From: Escherichia virus TH35
Length of the DNA stretch: 64,000 bases
Reading direction: 5' to 3' (one strand)
Sequence record: MT446408.1
In this document: piece by piece, positions 3,157-45,849 of the stretch
Layout of the letters: each line of letters starts with the position of its first letter
Numbering within the stretch: the stretch's first letter is position 1
Made by a program: the position numbers and the translations under genes
Notes under the pieces: generated by a model
The model's database searches: none
Told to the model about the DNA's origin: nothing
The model's input: only the letters and a program-made list of their open reading frames with translations

Positions 3157-6053
3157 TGTTTCCACAATTGAGAGTTCGCAGCGGTTACACGTTCAAAGAA
3201 GTTTATGGACGGCATCCTGAAATTATAGCACGGCTCAAAGAGTTGGGCTGCGAAGTCGCGGCATTAGTTGATAACAACACATGGGGTCACGTTCGCTGGG
3301 AAAAGGAATGCCAGAAAAATGATATTAAGCCTATGTTTGGGATGGAGATTCCAATCATCGACCCTGATGCGGACCCGAAAAAGGGATTCAAACCGAAGGC
3401 TTGGATATTGGCCCTTGACTTGAAATCTTTTTACAATGCTACAACACTTGCAACGCAGCGCGGTGGACTTACCCGTTCAGAGTTCGGTGCGCTCGATGGC
3501 GTCGTTAAATTCTGTGGCGGTGCCGTGGAGTTGCTGCGGCCAGAGGACTACGACTATATAGACGTCAACCCATCATCGTTCCTTTTGGCAAAGCGCCAGG
3601 CATTGGCTCATCGTAGCAGTGGAAGGCCGCTGGTTTTAACCGGATACAATCACATGCCTTCACCTGAGCACGTTGACTTTGCTTATGCGTGGGAAGTGCG
3701 CGACACGGTTAAGCCGCATTGCATCGTTGACGTTGAAGACTTGCGCAAACAGCTTAAAGGCATCTTGACTGAAGATGAACTTGATCAGGCAACGGCCAAT
3801 GCTGTGGACATCGCAAACGGCATAGTCGGGCTTGACTTGAAATTGCGTAAGGCACCGATTATTCACCTTGCTGGTGACATGGTAAAGCTTGCTCGCGAGG
3901 GTATGGAGTACCGTCTAAAAGCAGGTCACATCAAAGAATGGACTCAGGAATACGAGGACCGCTTCAACGAAGAAATTCACCAGATTCAGCTGAAAGATTT
4001 CGACTCATACTTTCTGGTGGTAGCGGACCTTGTACGATTCGCAAAAACAAAAATGCTCGTCGGTCCTGCGCGCGGCTCATCGGCTGGTTCACTTGTTTGC
4101 TATTGCCTCGGCATCACGGAAGTGGACCCAATCCCGTATAAGCTGCTGTTTGCCCGATTCATCGACGTAAGTCGCGCCGACCTTCCTGACATCGACATCG
4201 ACTTTGAAGATACCAAACGCTATATGGTGTTTGATTATCTCAAAGAGAAATACGGCGAAATGAATGTTGCAAAGCTTGGCAACATCAACACGCTTAAGGC
4301 CAACTCAGTAATGGCGCAGGTTGGTAAGAAGTTCAACATTGGATACCACGAAACGGCCAACATTAAAAACGCACTGCTTGAATACTCATCCGGTGACGCC
4401 CGTTATGGTCACGGCCTGGAGGATACCTTTGCAACAACGACCACGGGCCAAGAGTTCGTGGCGAAATATCCTGACGCCGCGCGTTGCATGGGTGACCTTG
4501 AGATTCACCCTTCCCACACAGGGGTGCACGCAGCGGGAATCATCGTGTGTAATGACCCAATCTCTGATTACTGTACTGTAACTGCGGAAGGGATTGCGCA
4601 AATCGATAAGCCTGACAGCGAGTACCTTAACCTTTTGAAGCTTGATGCACTGGGCCTTCGTACTCTCGGCATTATTTCTGATACAGGCGTTATTGATGCT
4701 GAAACGCTCTACGGAATCAAGCTTGATGATCAAAGCGTACTTGACATTCTTAACGAAAACAAGATGTCAGGCATCTTCCAGTTTGAAGGTGACGCTGTAC
4801 GCTCAGTAACAAACTTTGTGCACGTCGACAACTTTAACAAAATCGACAACCTGACAGCTTTGGGTCGACCTGGCCCGTTGTCATCCGGTATGGCCCAGAA
4901 ATACATTGAACGCGCGGCAGGGCGTGCGCCGATTGAGTACGACGTGCCGCAGCTTGAGCCGTACTTGAAAGAGACTTACGGCGTGTTTCTTTACCAAGAG
5001 CAAATCATGGCCGTGGTTAAAGAGATTGGTTCATTTGACTGGGCGAAAACGTCAGCTGTGCGTAAGGCGATGTCAGGCCGTAAGGGTGAAGAATACTTTA
5101 ACAAGCTTGGCGAGGACTTTGTTGCAGGCGCAATCAATAACGGCGTACCGGAAGCGGATGCAAGAAAGCTTTGGCAAGCGATGGCCACGTTCGGGTCATG
5201 GGGCTTTAACAAGTCACACTCCGTGTCATACGCGGTCGTGACCTACTGGACCTTGTGGCTTAAGCGACACTACCCGTTGGAATTTGCCGCTGCCTGCTTA
5301 CGCGCTGCTAAGGACGAAGACCAGACGATTGCGATATTACGTGAACTAGCGAAGGAAGGCGTGGATTATGTGCCAATCGACCCTGATCACTCTTCGATGA
5401 ACTGGACCATCGCGAACGGAAAGCTAATCGGCGGCATCATGAACGCGAAAGGATACGGAATGGTGAAGGCGATGAAGTATATCGAAGCGCGTGAAGCCGG
5501 AACCTTAACGCAAAAGCAAAAGGACGCATTGGCCAATGCTGAAGTCAAATACGGCGACCTTACAGAGATGCACACAAAGTTCGGCTGGGCGTATAATGAC
5601 CCGTATCTGATTGGTGTGACGTCCGGCGCTTCAATACGCCAGATGAAGGAAGTCGGTGATGACGAGCGTGCAATAGTAATCGGCAAGTTGACAAAGAAAG
5701 TGCTTGCAGACGAGAACGAAGCGACACGCATCCGTAAACGACTTGAGCGCGGCATCTATACAAAGCACGGCAAGCTTAAAAAAGGTCTTCAAGCTGATGG
5801 CCGCTACGCAGAGTTTGACCAGTACGGAAACAAGCTTGAGACTCAGTTCATCGACCTTATGTGCAAAGACGACTCGACCGACTCGCCAATGCGCTTCAGG
5901 ATTCGTCCAGAAAAGTTCCAGAAGTACGGGAAATACATTGCTGAAAACGTCGGGAACGGCGCATTCTTCCTGATGAAAGGTCGCAAGCTTGAAGGCATTG
6001 ACATGTTCATAGTCGACGTTATCAAACAGGTGTATCCAGATGGCAACAAATAA
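3156..6053 (+). CDS. DNA polymerase III alpha-subunit-like replicative polymerase (DnaE family, PHP domain N-terminal)
   Basis: ORF track 965 aa; conserved GSSAGSLVCYCLGIT and DLPDIDIDFE polymerase motifs. Confidence 0.9.
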   Translation: MFPQLRVRSGYTFKEVYGRHPEIIARLKELGCEVAALVDNNTWGHVRWEKECQKNDIKPMFGMEIPIIDPDADPKKGFKPKAWILALDLKSFYNATTLATQRGGLTRSEFGALDGVVKFCGGAVELLRPEDYDYIDVNPSSFLLAKRQALAHRSSGRPLVLTGYNHMPSPEHVDFAYAWEVRDTVKPHCIVDVEDLRKQLKGILTEDELDQATANAVDIANGIVGLDLKLRKAPIIHLAGDMVKLAREGMEYRLKAGHIKEWTQEYEDRFNEEIHQIQLKDFDSYFLVVADLVRFAKTKMLVGPARGSSAGSLVCYCLGITEVDPIPYKLLFARFIDVSRADLPDIDIDFEDTKRYMVFDYLKEKYGEMNVAKLGNINTLKANSVMAQVGKKFNIGYHETANIKNALLEYSSGDARYGHGLEDTFATTTTGQEFVAKYPDAARCMGDLEIHPSHTGVHAAGIIVCNDPISDYCTVTAEGIAQIDKPDSEYLNLLKLDALGLRTLGIISDTGVIDAETLYGIKLDDQSVLDILNENKMSGIFQFEGDAVRSVTNFVHVDNFNKIDNLTALGRPGPLSSGMAQKYIERAAGRAPIEYDVPQLEPYLKETYGVFLYQEQIMAVVKEIGSFDWAKTSAVRKAMSGRKGEEYFNKLGEDFVAGAINNGVPEADARKLWQAMATFGSWGFNKSHSVSYAVVTYWTLWLKRHYPLEFAAACLRAAKDEDQTIAILRELAKEGVDYVPIDPDHSSMNWTIANGKLIGGIMNAKGYGMVKAMKYIEAREAGTLTQKQKDALANAEVKYGDLTEMHTKFGWAYNDPYLIGVTSGASIRQMKEVGDDERAIVIGKLTKKVLADENEATRIRKRLERGIYTKHGKLKKGLQADGRYAEFDQYGNKLETQFIDLMCKDDSTDSPMRFRIRPEKFQKYGKYIAENVGNGAFFLMKGRKLEGIDMFIVDVIKQVYPDGNK

Positions 6054-8933: not shown

Positions 8934-9794
8934 ATGTCTAAGAAAGAAACTACCGAAGTTGCAGTGAAAAACACCCAGATGTCCGCTATGGCTGATTTTG
9001 TCGACATGACCGATTTTGGCGCTGGTTTTGAAGGTGCCGATGCCGATGCGTATGCCATTCCTTTTATCGTCGTACTGCAGAAGATGTCTCCTATGGTCGA
9101 CGAAGATGATCCAAAACACGTTCCTGGCGCAAAAGCTGGCATGCTTTACAACACCGTTACTGGTGAGTTGTATGACGGCAAGAAAGGCGTGCAGATCATC
9201 CCTTGCGCATTCAAACGCACCTTCATCCTTTGGGGCGGTCGCGAGTCCGACGATAAAGGCTTTAAAGGTGAATTCACCAAAGAGCACGTTGATGCAGAAG
9301 TAGCGGCAGGCCGCGCTGTTGAGATCAACGGTAAAGTGTTTGTGCCGGACGAAAACGGCAAAGTGCACGAGAAGAAATCGCCTTACTACGCAGATACACG
9401 TAACCACTTCGTAATTCTGTTGAACGAAGAAACTGGTGAATTTGGTAGCGCAATGTTGTCTTTGACTTCTTCGATGATCAAGCCGTCTCGCATGCTGATG
9501 ACCGCGCTGCAGCAGAAGAAAGTTCAGACTCCGCAAGGTCTGAAAACGCCGCCGACCTTTATGAACATCGTTCGCATGGGTACTGCATCCCAGTCCAAAG
9601 ACGGGAACACCTGGTCTGTTCTGAAGTTTGAGTTGGAAGGTCTGGTGCAGGACAAAGGTCTGTATGAAGTCGCCAAAGCATTCCACAACGATGTAGTTGG
9701 CGGCAACGTTAACATTGACCGCAGCAAGCAGGAAGAAGCAAGCGGTGCCGCTGGCCCTGTTAATGAAACTCCGACCGACGCAGAAGAGTTTTAA
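8934..9794 (+). CDS. Hypothetical protein (286 aa)
   Basis: ORF track; position between helicase and lysis genes; no confident family. Confidence 0.65.
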   Translation: MSKKETTEVAVKNTQMSAMADFVDMTDFGAGFEGADADAYAIPFIVVLQKMSPMVDEDDPKHVPGAKAGMLYNTVTGELYDGKKGVQIIPCAFKRTFILWGGRESDDKGFKGEFTKEHVDAEVAAGRAVEINGKVFVPDENGKVHEKKSPYYADTRNHFVILLNEETGEFGSAMLSLTSSMIKPSRMLMTALQQKKVQTPQGLKTPPTFMNIVRMGTASQSKDGNTWSVLKFELEGLVQDKGLYEVAKAFHNDVVGGNVNIDRSKQEEASGAAGPVNETPTDAEEF

Positions 9795-9812
9795 TCGACA
9801 ATCAAATCAACA

Positions 9813-9838
9813 AGGCTGCCGATTGGCGGCCTTTTATT
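9813..9838 (+). terminator. Rho-independent terminator
   Basis: GGCTGCC-GATT-GGCGGCC hairpin followed by TTTTATTT. Confidence 0.55.
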
Positions 9839-9851
9839 TATCTGGTGCATC

Positions 9852-10370
9852 ATGATAGAAAGAATTGTACCACTCCTGAAGATTATGGCCCTTGTTGGCG
9901 CGTTTGCCGCTGGATCATACGTTGAAGACCTGCAGCAAACCAACGCATCACTGGCCAAGGATAACCAATATCTGACATCGCTTAATGAGCGTAAGGACAA
10001 GATAAATGCACTCGAAGAGCAAATTGCATCTTTACAGGTTGAATCGGCATCGGCATATGAGAAAGGTCGCCAGGAAGCGCAACTGGTTGCTGATGACACT
10101 ATTGCTCGTTACAAGTCTGGGAATATCAAGTTGCGCGAGCAACTCAGCTGCTCCCGTGAGTTACTCAGGAGTGTGCCCGACTCTGCGACCACTGGACGCC
10201 TCTCTATCCCAGAAGGAAACTGTGGACTATCAGAAGAAGATGTCAGATTTCTTGTTCAGTTCGCCGCAGAAACAAACCGATTAAAAGATAAAGTTAATAG
10301 CTTGATTGATACTTATAATCAGGCTAAAATAAAAATCGATCAATTCAATGCATCAAAGGAAAATAAATGA
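9852..10370 (+). CDS. Rz-like i-spanin (inner-membrane spanin subunit)
   Basis: ORF track 172 aa; N-terminal transmembrane segment then long coiled-coil; contains embedded lipoprotein ORF in +1 frame. Confidence 0.6.
   Translation: MIERIVPLLKIMALVGAFAAGSYVEDLQQTNASLAKDNQYLTSLNERKDKINALEEQIASLQVESASAYEKGRQEAQLVADDTIARYKSGNIKLREQLSCSRELLRSVPDSATTGRLSIPEGNCGLSEEDVRFLVQFAAETNRLKDKVNSLIDTYNQAKIKIDQFNASKENK
10057..10284 (+). CDS. Rz1-like o-spanin (outer-membrane lipoprotein), embedded in the i-spanin gene
   Basis: ORF track 10006-10284; start moved to internal ATG 10057 giving MRKVARKRNWLLMTLLLVTSLGISSC signal peptide with lipobox Cys. Confidence 0.5.
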   Translation: MRKVARKRNWLLMTLLLVTSLGISSCASNSAAPVSYSGVCPTLRPLDASLSQKETVDYQKKMSDFLFSSPQKQTD

Positions 10371-10960
10371 AACAGATTTATGCAAACATTCGCCAGTGGG
10401 CTTCTGACCGTAACATCATCCAAGGTTGCGACCTTAAGGACCAATACCCGAAGCTTATCAGCGAGTTTGGGGAGTTAACCGACCACGTTGATCAACTCCA
10501 TGACCTTGTGTTCTTTGACCATGAAATTGAATATACAGAGCAGGCCATCTGTGACCTGCAGGCCGCAATCAAGGACGACATTGGTGATTGTCTTGTTGTA
10601 TTGACTATCCTTGCCGCGCAAAATGGTGCAAAAATCGAAGACATCAACGGCGGCGGTTGCGCTGACAAAGGTGCCCACCCTCACTCGTTTATCCTTCGCT
10701 TGGCAAAGACTCTCGGACGGCTTGGTGACGCCATTGCTAAAAATCAGAGCATGGATATTGATGTCACCATCATGGTCGCAGTCGATTACCTTTCCGGCGT
10801 AGCTCATGATTATGGCCTTCGCTTATCCGACTGTGCGCAAGCGGCCTACGAAGACATCAAGGACCGCAAAGGTGTCATGTACAACGGCACGTTTATCAAA
10901 TCGACTGATCAGGCTTACGCCTATGCGCTGGAACAAGTAATGAATGAGGGGAAAGAGTGA
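10367..10960 (+). CDS. MazG-like nucleotide pyrophosphohydrolase
   Basis: ORF track 197 aa; EFGELTDH and IGDCLVVL motifs typical of all-alpha NTP pyrophosphatases. Confidence 0.6.
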   Translation: MKQIYANIRQWASDRNIIQGCDLKDQYPKLISEFGELTDHVDQLHDLVFFDHEIEYTEQAICDLQAAIKDDIGDCLVVLTILAAQNGAKIEDINGGGCADKGAHPHSFILRLAKTLGRLGDAIAKNQSMDIDVTIMVAVDYLSGVAHDYGLRLSDCAQAAYEDIKDRKGVMYNGTFIKSTDQAYAYALEQVMNEGKE

Positions 10961-11934
10961 TGGCAGGAGAGATCAAAGCGCTTAAGCCAATGAAAGGCTG
11001 TCAACGTAAGCAAATCATCGAACGCGGTGAAGACGTTCCGTTACCTTGCGGATTGTCATTTAAGGTTGATGGCATACGTGCTATGGCTTATGACAAGCTT
11101 CCTATGGGTACGTCTGGAATGCCGCTGCGAAACGTTCAAATCAAGAAAGAGTTCCTTTTCTTGGGCGATTTGATTTACGGCCTTGATGGTGAACTCATCG
11201 ACGGCAATCCTAATGACAAGAACGTCATGCAGCAGGCATATACTGCGTGCATGAATACTGATGCAATAACTAACTTTACATGGTGGGTGTTTGATGACTT
11301 CAGCGACCCCGATTTACCTTTTGAAAAGCGTTATGCGAACTATCGGGCTAGAGTTGCTGAGGTCAATCAGTATCTCTTGGACCATGGCCACAGACCATTC
11401 CTTCGCGCCCTTGAATACCGAAACATTGAGAATATGGATCAATACGCGGCAATGCAAGTCGAAGCGGACCAGCTTGGATATGAAGGCTTATACGGCAAAT
11501 CGTGGACGGGCAAATACAAGCATGGTCGCGCAACGCCGAAGTCGCGTGATGTATGGAAAGACAAGCCGTGGACCGACGAAGAAGGACAGATCATAGATTT
11601 CGTCGAGATGATGGAGAATAACAACGAAGCGTTCATTGATGAGCTTGGTCGCACAAAACGATCAAAGGAAGCTGAAGGACTCGTTGCCAAGGGTTATCTC
11701 GGATCATTTGTCGTAGTCAATCCAAAGTATGTAGATGAGAAGGGTGAGATGATTCCTTTCCGTGTGTCCGCAGGTTCAATGCCTATGGCAGAGCGGAAGA
11801 TGCTTTGGGATAATCGCGAAAATTATCGCCACAAATACTTGACGTATAAATTCTTTAACTTTGGCATCGTTGACGTGCCGCGCTCTGCGCTTTATAAATG
11901 CTTCCGTGATATTACCGATATGGAGTATTTTTAA
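10957..11934 (+). CDS. ATP-dependent DNA ligase
   Basis: ORF track 325 aa; nucleotidyltransferase motif I FKVDGIR (KxDG). Confidence 0.75.
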   Translation: MMAGEIKALKPMKGCQRKQIIERGEDVPLPCGLSFKVDGIRAMAYDKLPMGTSGMPLRNVQIKKEFLFLGDLIYGLDGELIDGNPNDKNVMQQAYTACMNTDAITNFTWWVFDDFSDPDLPFEKRYANYRARVAEVNQYLLDHGHRPFLRALEYRNIENMDQYAAMQVEADQLGYEGLYGKSWTGKYKHGRATPKSRDVWKDKPWTDEEGQIIDFVEMMENNNEAFIDELGRTKRSKEAEGLVAKGYLGSFVVVNPKYVDEKGEMIPFRVSAGSMPMAERKMLWDNRENYRHKYLTYKFFNFGIVDVPRSALYKCFRDITDMEYF

Positions 11935-12008
11935 CACACTGGATAAATAATTGTTGCGTATAATCTATCGCGCCGTTTTATAGAATTTAATATACAGTGT
12001 ATACATAA

Positions 12009-12035
12009 AGCCGGAAATTTCCGGCTTTTCTTTTA
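12009..12035 (+). terminator. Rho-independent terminator
   Basis: Perfect palindrome AGCCGGAAATTTCCGGCT followed by T-run. Confidence 0.6.
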
Positions 12036-12050
12036 TTTACTTTCGGCGTA

Positions 12051-12078
12051 TTTACTTTCAAAACCTTAAGCCTATACT
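12051..12078 (+). promoter_or_regulatory. Sigma70-like promoter (TTTACT-N16-TATACT)
   Basis: Read from sequence upstream of 12110 ATG. Confidence 0.45.
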
Positions 12079-12109
12079 ATTAATATTCATAATCAAAAGG
12101 TGAATTATA

Positions 12110-12652
12110 ATGAAAGCGAACAAATTAAAGATTGTTTTGATCATCATCATGGCTATGCTGACAGTTATATTCTTCACCAAGACTGCATCGGCTGAAAATA
12201 TGTTCACGCCGCCGAATGGAAGTGCAAAAGTTTTGACAAGATATTTCAACAATGGGCAGTCATTTGAGTTTTGCTGGAATAAATACGACGTAATAAAAGA
12301 AAGATTTGACAAAGAAAAGATGTGCGTAATGAATGATCGCGGTCGGCAGGTCGTGTCGTTTGTGTTCGGAATGTCGATGGCAAAAGTTGATGCCCCTGAA
12401 ATCGTTGTCAGGTATAATACATTGGACAGCGGCCTTGTCGACAAGACATACCCTGTTGCAGTAGACAGCAGGACAGGCGGCGCACTAATACTCACTCCAG
12501 AAGATAAATCAGATGTCGTTAACATGCTCATCAACAGCAAAGACGTAATCGTGTTTTATCACATTGAAGGCGTATCAGACTACCAAATGGCCTACTATCC
12601 ACTGCCCTTGAGAGATGCTTCAGGTAATGTTAAGACACAGGAAGTGCGTTGA
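12110..12652 (+). CDS. Secreted hypothetical protein with cleavable N-terminal signal peptide
   Basis: ORF track 180 aa; MKANKLKIVLIIIMAMLTVIFFTKTASA signal-peptide-like N-terminus. Confidence 0.6.
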   Translation: MKANKLKIVLIIIMAMLTVIFFTKTASAENMFTPPNGSAKVLTRYFNNGQSFEFCWNKYDVIKERFDKEKMCVMNDRGRQVVSFVFGMSMAKVDAPEIVVRYNTLDSGLVDKTYPVAVDSRTGGALILTPEDKSDVVNMLINSKDVIVFYHIEGVSDYQMAYYPLPLRDASGNVKTQEVR

Positions 12653-12879
12653 CATGGGTGGTAGTTATGCAGAAAGATTTGGAAGAAAACAAAAGGCTGA
12701 AAAAGGCTTTGACGTCTCAAATCTTGTCCCTGTTGGTAAAGCTTATTGGGGAGTCAATTAGCAACAAGGTGGCACGGGCCGCGATTGTAGGTGTGATTGG
12801 TATGGCGGGGTATTACTTCGACTTGCCAGACATTGATACAAGTTCCGCTCCGCCCGTCCAAGTTGAAGCCGTAAAATAA
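12649..12879 (+). CDS. Small membrane protein (76 aa), holin candidate
   Basis: ORF track; single hydrophobic segment AAIVGVIGMAGYYF; adjacent to convergent endolysin gene. Confidence 0.45.
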   Translation: MTWVVVMQKDLEENKRLKKALTSQILSLLVKLIGESISNKVARAAIVGVIGMAGYYFDLPDIDTSSAPPVQVEAVK

Positions 12880-12881
12880 AC

Positions 12882-12904
12882 AAAGGCCCATATGGGCCTT
12901 TTTC
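12882..12904. terminator. Bidirectional terminator between convergent + and - transcription units
   Basis: Perfect palindrome AAAGGCCCATATGGGCCTTT flanked by A/T runs on both strands. Confidence 0.65.
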
Positions 12905-13549
12905 TTACATGACTGCTAGTGCATCCTTGTAACGCTTTCTTCGCAACTCACCGTGGTTCGCTGCGTTCGGCGCGGCCCCATTAATCCGCTTAACGGTTGA
13001 ATCAAAATTCCCTGCATCCGCAAGAGGAATACAACCACTATTCTTAAAGAACCATGCCGCGCTGTCGGCAATGTATTTTGGTTCAGTCAGAATATCAGGA
13101 TTGTTCAATGCATCATAGCCTGATTGACGCGTATATTCAGCATAGTTCGCTTTGCCAGTCAGCTGAATGGCACCACGGCCACGGTACTTCCAACCGTCGC
13201 CAGATGCTACCGAACCGTTGCCCATGCGGTTTGCGTATGTATTATTGGCGATTTCCATAGGTTTACGTGCAATCGACAGGGCCAATGAGTTCGGGGCGCT
13301 TCCAGCACGACCGTTGACGCTGTAACGACTAGGCCATGTATTGGCAAGGCCCTGTGCAGAGTAGTTGAGATTTTCCACAAAGGTCTTCAAGCCGCCCGTC
13401 TCTACTCCTACGTTTGCAAGGAATGCTGCAATGGCATTCTTGCTTTTTATTCCGTAGTGCTCACAAGCCTGCTTGAAAGGATCCACCCAATTTTCTGCAA
13501 CATCCGTGCTGCATCCTGTCCCTTTAGATATTACGTTTGCATTAATCAT
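12905..13549 (-). CDS. Endolysin, glycoside hydrolase family 19 type
   Basis: ORF track 214 aa; AAFLANVGVETGGL and GDGWKYRGRGAIQLTGKANY motifs. Confidence 0.8.
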   Translation of the reverse strand: MINANVISKGTGCSTDVAENWVDPFKQACEHYGIKSKNAIAAFLANVGVETGGLKTFVENLNYSAQGLANTWPSRYSVNGRAGSAPNSLALSIARKPMEIANNTYANRMGNGSVASGDGWKYRGRGAIQLTGKANYAEYTRQSGYDALNNPDILTEPKYIADSAAWFFKNSGCIPLADAGNFDSTVKRINGAAPNAANHGELRRKRYKDALAVM

Positions 13550-41901: not shown

Positions 41902-42117
41902 ATGAAACTCATCGACCGTGCCATCAAAGCCATTGATAACCACTCCACCGCGCTTGCTTTCGTGATGGGATTTTGTTTCACTGCTGCGTTTGGCGACGTT
42001 CACACATTCAAGTCTGTCATCTTGTGCTGGTCCATCTGGTCCCTTATTTCTCTGGTTTTGATTCTTCCGATGACGTGGCTTGTTCTTACTTGTCTTGAAT
42101 CTCAAGGTGAAGACTGA
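41902..42117 (+). CDS. Small multi-pass membrane protein (71 aa), holin candidate
   Basis: ORF track; two to three hydrophobic segments. Confidence 0.45.
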   Translation: MKLIDRAIKAIDNHSTALAFVMGFCFTAAFGDVHTFKSVILCWSIWSLISLVLILPMTWLVLTCLESQGED

Positions 42118-43137: not shown

Positions 43138-45480
43138 ATGCCAAGGCTAATATTCAAAAACAACTTTGAGGTCGCGCTGGCTCAACCAACGACGACTTCA
43201 GACACCACAATCACAATTCGCTCAGGGTCGGGCTTTCCGACTTTGGGCGCAAACGAGCGTGTAGTGGCGACAATCGTCGACGCTGCAACAGGCCTCCAAT
43301 TCGAAATCGTCACAGTAACAGCCGTGGTTGGAAACGTCCTGACCGTGCAGCGTGCTCAAGAAGGAACTGCAGCGCGTGCATGGGCTGCTGGTGACATGCT
43401 TTCCATTCGAACTACTGCCGCGACTTTGACGGGTACTGTCCGAAACTTTGGCGCTGTTCCATCCGGTATGAATTTGAACGCTCTTACTGGCAGCTGGTTT
43501 GGGCAATATTATCAGAACTCTGACGGCGCAGCCTCTTCTGGGTTGAACTATCCTGTTGAGCAGGCAGGAGTCCTAGAGGTGTTGCAAACAGGAGTATCGA
43601 CCGAAAGTTGCATCCAAAAATACACATCATATTCCATCAACAACACTTACCAAAGAAGATTCAATGCGCAAAATAGCACATGGTCTCCTTGGGTGATGAT
43701 TTATTCAGAATCAAGCGTCATACCTGTGTCCAACGGCGGCACGGGTCAAACAACCATTCAGGGGATGAAGTCCGCGTTTGGATTCGGTACAGTTGCTGAT
43801 CAGAATGTCGTCCCTACTTCCATGGGCGGTACGGGCTCAGCAGACAATGCACAAGCATGGCTGAATATTCGTCCACAAGGGTCAACGCCGCTCGCTGGTG
43901 ACCCAGTTAACGATTATGATGCCGCGACCAAGCGTTGGGTTGAAAACTTAGTTAACACAGGCACCATTGGTCCAAGCATGAACGGTGTCATGAACTATGG
44001 CGTTGGTGATTTTCACTTACGCGACAGTCGTGCATATATTCAACCGTATGAAGTCGTTGCTGATGGGCAGTTATTAAACCGCGCTGACTGGCCTGAACTT
44101 TGGTCATATGCGCAAATGCTGTCGCCTATTGCAGATGCTGACTGGCTGGCGGACCCGCAAAAGCGCGGAAGATATTCCTTGGGGAATGGCACCACCACAT
44201 TCCGAGTGCCAGACCGCAACGGCGTCCAGACAGGGTCAATAAAAGAGCTTTTCTGCAGAGGTGATGGCGGCAACCCGACAAACGATGGAATGGTGTATAA
44301 TGCTGCTGCGCCTAACATACTTGCCTATACGCCTCACACAGTGCTCACCGCTGCCAGTGCAAAAGGCCAAGTGGCCACTGATGGGTCTTTCACATCAACG
44401 ACATCCACTAGTGGTGTTTGGCCTACGTCCGGTGGCGAAGGCCTGTATGCGAATATCCGTTTCGACGCTTCCCAATCATCTCCATTGTATGGTCGATACG
44501 GAATCGTGGACAACCTGATACCAAAGAACTTTATTGGCGTTTGGGTGATTCGTGCATCGGGTGGATTTGTTGCCGCGAATACGTCTTGGAGTGTTATAAA
44601 TGGTGATGGCACAAGACCGCCTGGCGGGACGAGAGTTGAATCAGGGAAAGTAAGCGTTGAATACAAGATTGGAACTTCCATTGAAGCGCAAGGAACGGTT
44701 TACACATCAGCAACGATGGGTGGTTCATACTCCACCCAGTTGTCCGTAAAAAACGTCACTGCAGGTAAAGAAAAAGACATCAGCTTGACTGATGACGGTC
44801 TATTGTGGTCTGACCGATTTGCGGCACGTTACGGAACATTGATGTCATGGGCTGAAACAGGTTCAAAGTCAGGCACCTTCTCGATGACGAGACAGGCACT
44901 TGGTCAAAACTATGGCTTTAACAGCCTTATCAGCGGTAGTCAATCTGTTAATACAGGATACGCAACTACTGTTCACCATGGCATGATTCACAACAACAAT
45001 GGAAGTTTTGCGCAAGCTACGTGGATTGCTTCTGGTGATGATGATGCAAAGTATCAAACAAAGATGCAAATCCAGCCTAACGTAGAGGATGTATTTTTTT
45101 CAGTATCCGTTCCAGGCTCTGACAGCTTCTTTACTCTTCAAAAGAATGCCATCTCTGATGAGAATTTGAAGCATGACATACGACCAGGAACGGTTGAAAA
45201 AGCATGGAGCAACCTTTCATCGCTGGAGTATGTAACGTTCATATACAACAATGATGAAAAGGAAAGGATAAGAAGGGGTATTATCGCTCAACAGGCAGAG
45301 ATTATTGACCCTTTGTATGTTAAGACGATTAAATTCTATCCGAGTGAAGGTGTCGAAGTTGAACAAAAACAACTTGACACGACACCTATGCTTTTGGATA
45401 CGATGCACGTGGTGCAGGAGTTGATGAAAAAAGTTGAATCCCTAGAGGCAGAGATAGCCGCGCTGAAAGCAGCAAAATAA
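43138..45480 (+). CDS. Tail fiber/tailspike protein with C-terminal intramolecular chaperone (peptidase S74-type) domain
   Basis: ORF track 780 aa; C-terminal NAISDENLKHDI motif followed by coiled-coil. Confidence 0.7.
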   Translation: MPRLIFKNNFEVALAQPTTTSDTTITIRSGSGFPTLGANERVVATIVDAATGLQFEIVTVTAVVGNVLTVQRAQEGTAARAWAAGDMLSIRTTAATLTGTVRNFGAVPSGMNLNALTGSWFGQYYQNSDGAASSGLNYPVEQAGVLEVLQTGVSTESCIQKYTSYSINNTYQRRFNAQNSTWSPWVMIYSESSVIPVSNGGTGQTTIQGMKSAFGFGTVADQNVVPTSMGGTGSADNAQAWLNIRPQGSTPLAGDPVNDYDAATKRWVENLVNTGTIGPSMNGVMNYGVGDFHLRDSRAYIQPYEVVADGQLLNRADWPELWSYAQMLSPIADADWLADPQKRGRYSLGNGTTTFRVPDRNGVQTGSIKELFCRGDGGNPTNDGMVYNAAAPNILAYTPHTVLTAASAKGQVATDGSFTSTTSTSGVWPTSGGEGLYANIRFDASQSSPLYGRYGIVDNLIPKNFIGVWVIRASGGFVAANTSWSVINGDGTRPPGGTRVESGKVSVEYKIGTSIEAQGTVYTSATMGGSYSTQLSVKNVTAGKEKDISLTDDGLLWSDRFAARYGTLMSWAETGSKSGTFSMTRQALGQNYGFNSLISGSQSVNTGYATTVHHGMIHNNNGSFAQATWIASGDDDAKYQTKMQIQPNVEDVFFSVSVPGSDSFFTLQKNAISDENLKHDIRPGTVEKAWSNLSSLEYVTFIYNNDEKERIRRGIIAQQAEIIDPLYVKTIKFYPSEGVEVEQKQLDTTPMLLDTMHVVQELMKKVESLEAEIAALKAAK

Positions 45481-45487
45481 TTCACTC

Positions 45488-45512
45488 AAGGCGCTGAAAA
45501 GCGCCTTTACTT
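45488..45512 (+). terminator. Rho-independent terminator (weak T-run)
   Basis: GGCGC-TGAAAA-GCGCC hairpin after fiber gene stop. Confidence 0.45.
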
Positions 45513-45561
45513 TATGCGCAATTAAGTTATACTCATTATACGTTAACAAGTGAGGTGATTT

Positions 45562-45849
45562 ATGAAATTTGAAGATATTGATAAGGCTCAGAAAGCAAAG
45601 ACTCTTCCAAAATACTTAATTTGCGGCATCGACCCTGCGGACAAGCGCCTTGTCTTTTTGAAAGCCGTCAAGGGTGATGAACATGGCAACGCAGTTGATT
45701 GGTGCATCCCGCTCTTTGAGACAAAGGGAGAAGCCGAACAGGCATTGTTAGAAAGCAAGATGCCTTCGCATTACAAAGTCAGGACTCAAGATGAAATTCC
45801 AACCTTGATTTTGGACAACATTAACAGCGGAGAAGGCTCTAATGGATAA
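45562..45849 (+). CDS. Hypothetical protein (95 aa)
   Basis: ORF track. Confidence 0.6.
   Translation: MKFEDIDKAQKAKTLPKYLICGIDPADKRLVFLKAVKGDEHGNAVDWCIPLFETKGEAEQALLESKMPSHYKVRTQDEIPTLILDNINSGEGSNG

Follow-up and report, generated by a model that had tools for sequence, protein, structure and literature searches.

Does the gene at positions 9,852 to 10,370 of this phage DNA encode one lysis protein or two? The window that we analyzed is a 64,000-nucleotide stretch of Escherichia virus TH35 (MT446408.1). An original prediction, made from the letters of the window, had proposed that this gene encodes the inner-membrane subunit of a spanin (i-spanin), and that the outer-membrane lipoprotein subunit (o-spanin) is encoded in another frame inside it. 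The embedded two-component spanin is a functional class that was reportedly defined by Summer et al. in 2007. The class is also defined by Kongari et al. 2018 (PMC6139136). We find that the locus is very probably a two-component spanin in the embedded arrangement typified by lambda Rz/Rz1. Those features of the embedded architecture that can be tested in a sequence are present and conserved, and curated sources give the same reading for orthologues that are 97-99% identical.

Some 28 myophages of E. coli and Shigella, all in the genus Wifcevirus, match the 4 kb of DNA around the locus (9000-13000) with 92-95% identity; ECML-117, WFH, WFC, FEC19, Mansfield and Bas98-101 are among them. By this similarity, the source phage is a Wifcevirus-type E. 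coli myophage. The 519-bp spanin region has 96-99% DNA identity to other Wifcevirus genomes, and its being better conserved than its flanks fits the extra constraint imposed by two overlapping reading frames. We also use four metagenomic relatives of the i-spanin (L007 to L010), which are 53-65% identical to it in a full-length alignment and 57-66% by BLASTP. The source phage and these four relatives are the five lineages referred to below.

The outer gene

The 172-aa open reading frame is present exactly as originally described. It has the following features:

9852 to 10370 (stop codon included), plus strand: i-spanin gene, 172 aa, Rz-like, with an ATG start; from the open reading frame listing, PHROG 1327, orthologues and an AlphaFold2 model.
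9864 to 9923, plus strand: predicted N-terminal transmembrane segment, residues ~5-24, IVPLLKIMALVGAFAAGSYV; from hydropathy.
10149 to 10223, plus strand: the two periplasmic cysteines, C100 at 10149-10151 and C124 at 10221-10223; invariant in the family.

The N-terminal transmembrane segment proposed for this protein agrees with the hydropathy profile, which has a single hydrophobic stretch at residues ~5-24 and none elsewhere. The Kyte-Doolittle maximum is 2.2 with a 15-residue window, and 1.65 with a 19-residue window. Basic residues are found ahead of the hydrophobic segment and the acidic residues E25 and D26 behind it, so that by the positive-inside rule the i-spanin would have an N-in, C-out (type II) topology.

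We modeled the protein with AlphaFold2 from six family members. The model (mean pLDDT 79) presents one helix at residues 5-106, an unstructured linker at 107-127, and a second helix at 128-171. The spanin class is characterized by a mostly alpha-helical periplasmic domain consisting of two helices and a linker, and this is the arrangement that we observe in the model. A coiled coil had also been proposed for the outer protein, and here the outcome is mixed. The helical model favors it, but our own crude heptad test is weak, with the observed contrast being reached in 100 of 2000 shuffles (p ~0.05). Because that test is only marginal, the coiled coil rests on the helical model and on a published result for the ECML-117 orthologue, for which Pepcoil reports one coiled coil (Kongari et al., Table S3, PMC6139136).

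The nested gene

The +1 frame of the outer gene contains an open reading frame with two in-frame ATG codons, for which we list both forms:

10006 to 10284, plus strand: o-spanin open reading frame, long form (92 aa), read in the +1 frame and contained over its whole length in the i-spanin gene; the Mansfield and Bas98-101 records use this start.
10057 to 10284, plus strand: o-spanin open reading frame, short form, 75 aa, with a 25-residue signal peptide MRKVARKRNWLLMTLLLVTSLGISS; the start of the original prediction and of Kongari et al.
10117 to 10134, plus strand: predicted lipobox L-G-I-S-S and lipid-modified cysteine (10132-10134); from a pattern match; Pantoea phage LIET2 and all four diverged relatives have it too.
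10132 to 10281, plus strand: mature o-spanin, 50 aa with 4 prolines, and a second invariant cysteine at 10174-10176; from the sequence and the family alignment.

The nested gene was thought to begin at ATG 10057. An ATG is indeed present there and in frame, but it is one of two conserved candidates. The lipobox cysteine is found 25 residues after Met-10057 and 42 residues after Met-10006, and the mature o-spanin is identical whichever start is used. The lipoprotein signal with lipobox LGISS-C is recovered as one match to a PROSITE-style pattern (LLVTSLGISS/C). The residue at position +2 is alanine, not aspartate, and there is no inner-membrane retention signal.

Another characteristic of the spanin class is at least one periplasmic cysteine that could form a disulfide between two copies of the same subunit. 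C100 and C124 of the i-spanin, and C15 of the mature o-spanin, are all invariant.

Conservation and chance

In all four metagenomic relatives, the +1 frame is open over the same stretch. Their lipoboxes read AISSC, AISGC or ATSSC, the second cysteine is retained, and the mature nested peptide is 60-67% identical to that of the source phage.

If both frames are translated, we expect to observe it in the third positions of the outer gene. Among the five lineages, the third-position divergence of the i-spanin gene is 0.27 within 10057-10284, compared to 0.59, 0.53, and 0.49 in three segments not overlapped. Synonymous differences at identical i-spanin residues amount to 0.245 in the overlap versus 0.42-0.57 outside, and the drop starts at 10057. 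Third-position columns that are invariant number 35 out of 76 in the overlap, and 9 out of 88 outside (Fisher p = 3.5e-7). This pattern is the signature expected of two translated frames that are both under purifying selection.

How often would such a nested frame appear by chance? When we shuffle the codon order of the outer gene, an ATG-started lipoprotein-like open reading frame in an alternative frame appears in 8 of 20,000 trials (0.04%). Across the 64-kb window, 2 of 61 long open stretches contain an ATG-started lipobox frame in an alternative frame. Of these two, one is the spanin locus, and the other is a look-alike, a +1-frame reading frame at ~9016-9303 (FTTPLLVS/C) in the Pam3_gp34-like gene at 8934-9794. 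It has stops in all four diverged relatives, and we reject it as a chance match; it doubles as a control for the conservation test.

Beyond the genus, Pantoea phage LIET2 (NC_048751.1) has a nested o-spanin homologue, MKKPWLIIALVISGCANNS…, at ~3990-4185 within the gene at 3734-4234. It is 50% identical to ours, and the RefSeq record does not annotate it.

These observations bear on an alternative in which only the outer gene is real and makes an Rz-like membrane protein. The nested frame would be an untranslated by-product of the sequence of that gene, and the outer membrane would be disrupted in some other way. Such an alternative would account for the weak profile matches of the source phage's nested peptide (described below), and for the o-spanin being missing from the annotation in many relatives' records. 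It has difficulty explaining, however, why five lineages have retained the open frame, the lipobox, both cysteines, and both ATGs, and why LIET2 also has a nested lipoprotein with a lipobox. It does not explain either why constraint on the outer gene's synonymous sites is confined to the overlap, or how a configuration so seldom produced by shuffling is conserved here when the look-alike in the neighboring gene is not. We consider a non-translated nested frame extremely improbable.

Family assignment

Against PHROG 1327, 'Rz-like spanin', the i-spanin scores E = 2.1e-26 in a full-length match, its residues 6-160 aligning to profile positions 9-156 of 158. By tblastn, it matches the annotated i-spanin or Rz genes of Yersinia phages PY54 and P840 (1e-12 to 5e-13), and those of Pantoea LIET2, Nafs113, and Burkholderia Mica. 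The o-spanin of the source phage matches the spanin PHROGs weakly (3e-3 to 4e-4), and mostly across the signal peptide. For PHROG 3198, the lambda Rz1 family, the source phage o-spanin has E = 0.47, while the LIET2 o-spanin reaches 9e-6, that of L007 reaches 5e-4, and lambda Rz1 itself 1.5e-29.

We scanned both spanin proteins and the six-member family against Pfam, and obtained no usable match. In particular, the i-spanin has no significant Pfam match, PF03245 (Rz, Phage_lysis) included. Membership in PF03245 is defined by a score above the Pfam gathering threshold, and the source phage i-spanin has no match to this profile; one of the six i-spanin family members reaches it, with E = 0.002. 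A comparison of the i-spanin family to lambda Rz using hhalign is not significant (E = 0.1), and we reject the lambda Rz sequence family as the family of this i-spanin because the profile comparison is not significant. Judged by these comparisons, the pair shares the functional class of lambda Rz/Rz1 but forms a sequence family of its own, separate from that of lambda.

Proposed mechanism

The product of the outer gene would be anchored in the inner membrane by its N-terminus (type II), with a helix-linker-helix domain in the periplasm. The nested gene would produce a small lipoprotein precursor, which signal peptidase II is predicted to cut before the cysteine at nt 10132. Because its +2 residue is alanine, the mature o-spanin would be sorted to the outer membrane, where the Lol system would carry it.

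Our analysis shows the gene architecture, the sorting signals, the match to the family, and the conservation with its dual-coding constraint. How the complex forms, whether disulfides link it, and how and when it fuses the membranes we infer from lambda. By that analogy, the i-spanin and the o-spanin would bind via their C-terminal parts, and the conserved periplasmic cysteines may produce covalent homodimers. Reaching across the periplasm, the complex would be threaded through the peptidoglycan mesh, which would keep it inactive. Once a glycoside hydrolase of family GH19, the endolysin, degrades the wall, the complex would then fuse the inner and outer membranes, completing lysis.

Location of the lysis genes

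Two features of the surrounding DNA are relevant here:

9812 to 9843, plus strand: intrinsic-terminator-like hairpin (9812-9833; 9-bp stem with 6 G-C pairs) followed by a T-run; from a scan, and annotated in Mansfield.
12905 to 13549, minus strand: GH19 endolysin gene, 214 aa, the last gene of the structural block; from Pfam and PHROG, and annotated as endolysin in relatives.

The endolysin matches Pfam GH19 with E = 2.5e-8 (above cut-off) and PHROG 181, endolysin, with E = 5e-70. The original prediction that the spanin pair is 2.5 kb from the endolysin on the opposite strand is accurate: 2,534 bp separate the endolysin from the i-spanin stop. So is the claim that the lysis genes are split, with the spanin genes within the plus-strand block of replication genes, presumably an 'early' block, and the endolysin gene at the end of the minus-strand structural block. 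The split is conserved in relatives. The gene order in the metagenomic contigs is DNA polymerase III alpha, SNF2 helicase, DUF7307, Pam3_Gp34-like, i-spanin, MazG-like, and ligase, and 3′ of the ligase there are two small genes and then the convergent endolysin and tail genes, the same order as in the source phage.

At 10367-10370 (ATGA), the stop of the i-spanin gene overlaps the start of the MazG-like gene, and the MazG-like gene abuts a gene for an ATP-dependent DNA ligase. From this overlap and the adjoining ligase, the spanin genes look co-translated and co-transcribed with nucleotide-metabolism genes. The terminator-like hairpin ends ~9 nt ahead of the i-spanin ATG. It is kept upstream of the i-spanin gene in all four diverged relatives (L007 to L010), with stem changes that preserve the pairing. 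A scan for sigma-70 promoters near the spanin genes does not outdo shuffled sequence, with 12 found and 9.1 expected, and none of them is between the terminator and the ATG. The gap between the hairpin and the i-spanin ATG is too short to hold a promoter, so transcription of the spanin, MazG-like, and ligase genes must come either from read-through or from a promoter that lies upstream of it.

This location invites another alternative, that the pair is some other envelope system expressed with the replication genes, as for instance a superinfection-exclusion or receptor-blocking lipoprotein and its membrane partner. The genes are within the replication module and translationally coupled to the MazG-like gene, the endolysin is at a distance, and there is no holin nearby, all of which such a system would accommodate. 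The specific family match to Rz-like spanins argues against it, as do the helix-linker-helix periplasmic domain with a cysteine pattern typical of spanins, and the match of the LIET2 and L007 o-spanins to the Rz1 family. Against it, too, unlinked spanin genes are known in T4 (Kongari et al., PMC6139136). There, the spanin genes pseT.3/pseT.2 are found away from the e and t genes, so that dispersed lysis genes in a virulent myophage have a precedent (Kongari et al., PMC6139136). We hold a different envelope system to be very unlikely.

For the spanin reading itself, we count as points against it the weak o-spanin profile matches, the lack of a Pfam match, the non-significant comparison to lambda Rz, and a mature o-spanin with proportionally fewer prolines than Rz1. 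To these we add the location among replication genes, directly behind a terminator and at a distance from the endolysin, and the lack of a holin.

We searched for a holin using hydropathy, PHROGs, and the annotations of relatives, and found no family match and none annotated in the group. Small membrane proteins that we considered in that search are a 71-aa open reading frame with two hydrophobic segments at 41902-42117 (plus strand); a 180-aa protein with an N-terminal signal or anchor at 12110-12652 (plus strand); and a 70-aa protein at 12667-12879 (plus strand) that belongs to PHROG 5165 (function unknown), and ends 25 bp from the convergent endolysin gene. We set all three aside, as they have no informative family match and no annotation in relatives.

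As a separate observation, the endolysin slot of L007 (8078-8530, minus strand) and L008 (8065-8520, minus strand) is occupied by a 150-aa protein that matches PHROG 90, endolysin, and has no Pfam match at E up to 0.1, GH19 included. The endolysin of L009 is a GH19, like that of the source phage. Going by these matches, the endolysin has been swapped among relatives while the spanin pair stayed.

Comparison with known spanins

The closest known systems are the orthologues in ECML-117, Mansfield, and Bas98-101, with i-spanins of 96-99% protein identity and DNA of 96-99% identity; the i-spanins of ECML-117 and Mansfield are 98.8% identical to that of the source phage. They have in common with our pair the embedded +1 arrangement, in which the o-spanin starts 205 nt from the beginning of an i-spanin gene of 519 nt, as well as the GISS lipobox, the 50-aa mature o-spanin, two cysteines in the i-spanin and one periplasmic cysteine in the o-spanin, and the same neighbors. 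They differ only by a few amino-acid substitutions, such as M12 versus L12.

The prototype of the arrangement is lambda Rz/Rz1, in which the o-spanin gene is also wholly within the i-spanin gene in the +1 frame. Lambda Rz is ordered as a transmembrane domain, then a helix, a linker, and a helix. The i-spanin has the same N-terminal transmembrane domain, helix, linker, and helix, and a cysteine near residue 100; in a MAFFT alignment, C100 aligns with C99 of lambda Rz. The o-spanin, like lambda Rz1, has a lipobox, a second cysteine followed by a proline-containing stretch, and a D-[YW]-Q motif. The differences are also clear. Lambda Rz has 16% identity to the i-spanin, which is not significant, and the mature o-spanin here is longer and less proline-rich (4 prolines in 50 residues versus 10 in 40 in lambda Rz1). 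Instead of the lambda S-R-Rz cassette, we find spanins 2.5 kb from a convergent GH19 endolysin.

The T4 pair PseT.3/PseT.2 is alike in that T4 is a virulent myophage whose spanin genes are unlinked to endolysin and holin (Kongari et al., Fig. 8, PMC6139136). It differs in having separated, non-overlapping genes, an i-spanin without cysteines, and an o-spanin with a structured beta-alpha-beta domain (Kongari et al., PMC6139136). We see no sequence relationship between the T4 pair and that of the source phage.

The nearest named relatives outside Wifcevirus are the Rz-like spanins of Pantoea LIET2 and Nafs113 and of Yersinia PY54, which differ in genome context. The LIET2 i-spanin is 48% identical over residues 83-153.

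Existing annotation

The spanin pair is a correct assignment, but it is already known, as it was catalogued in 2018 in a near-identical phage. In Kongari et al. 2018 (PMC6139136; BMC Bioinformatics 19:326; Tables 3-4, S1, S4), ECML-117 is listed as having an embedded ('emb') two-component spanin. Its i-spanin has 172 aa, of which 24 are N-terminal and 148 periplasmic, and 2 cysteines. Its o-spanin (CDS 45462..45689, 75 aa) has the signal MRRVARKRNWLLMTLLLVTSLGISS and the lipobox GISS, and a mature form of 50 aa with one periplasmic cysteine (PMC6139136). That o-spanin start, 205 nt into the i-spanin gene, corresponds to position 10057 here. Both ECML-117 subunits are described as singleton families outside the lambda family, and the wording used is cautious: 'best possible candidates', 'putative o-spanin' (Kongari et al., PMC6139136). 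Our literature search turned up no experimental report on this family.

In GenBank, the records of Mansfield (CPT_Mansfield_057/058) and Bas98-101 annotate both the i-spanin and the o-spanin, the latter with 92 aa. Lysis genes are not a topic of the published genome announcement of Mansfield. RefSeq labels the outer gene as 'Rz-like spanin' in ECML-117, WFH, WFC, and FEC19. In several other Wifcevirus records, the nested o-spanin is missing, or both genes are called hypothetical. The comparative evidence can be used to correct those GenBank and RefSeq records, in the Wifcevirus genus and in LIET2, that lack the nested o-spanin.

Beyond correct annotation the significance is small. With the spanin pair added to the endolysin, the set of lysis genes in this phage is mostly complete. 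Wifcevirus phages are reported to have very short latent periods (BASEL paper), and work on that short latent period depends to a modest degree on knowing the lysis genes and their dispersed arrangement. As minor new points, absent from published annotations, we report that both o-spanin starts are conserved, that the upstream terminator hairpin is conserved, and that no holin is identified.

Two candidate start codons

The comparison also exposes a disagreement about the start codon: the 2018 census of Kongari et al. uses the 75-aa form, and the later Mansfield and Bas98-101 entries in GenBank use that of 92 aa. One more feature is needed here:

9993 to 9997, plus strand: Shine-Dalgarno-like AAGGA, 8 nt upstream of ATG 10006; same spacing in all five lineages.

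ATG 10006 is the only candidate start with a good Shine-Dalgarno, and the lysine codon that overlaps AAGGA is AAG in all five lineages. Near ATG 10057, we find no Shine-Dalgarno within ~12 nt. ATG 10006 is itself kept in five out of five lineages, even though the overlapping i-spanin residue varies between N, H, Y, and D. All of these use NAT codons, and the i-spanin codon that follows always begins with G, and thus ATG 10006 is preserved. ATG 10057 is also kept in all five; it arises from a conserved Tyr-Glu of the i-spanin, for which TAT is used in every lineage. The 17 codons between the two starts are open, with little peptide conservation and no dual-coding constraint.

One could speculate that the o-spanin carries a conserved dual-start motif, and that two precursor isoforms tune the rate or timing of export, acting together with the upstream hairpin, which in this scheme may limit the spanin dosage obtained from the replication-gene transcript. 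We find the scheme doubtful, and more improbable than probable by a good distance. If it were true, ATG 10006 would produce a 42-residue signal peptide with an unusually long and highly basic n-region, and ATG 10057 a canonical signal peptide of 25 residues. With ATG 10006, the signal peptide would be much longer than that of lambda. The LIET2 o-spanin differs from ours in this region, having a short signal peptide of 14 residues and no second ATG upstream.
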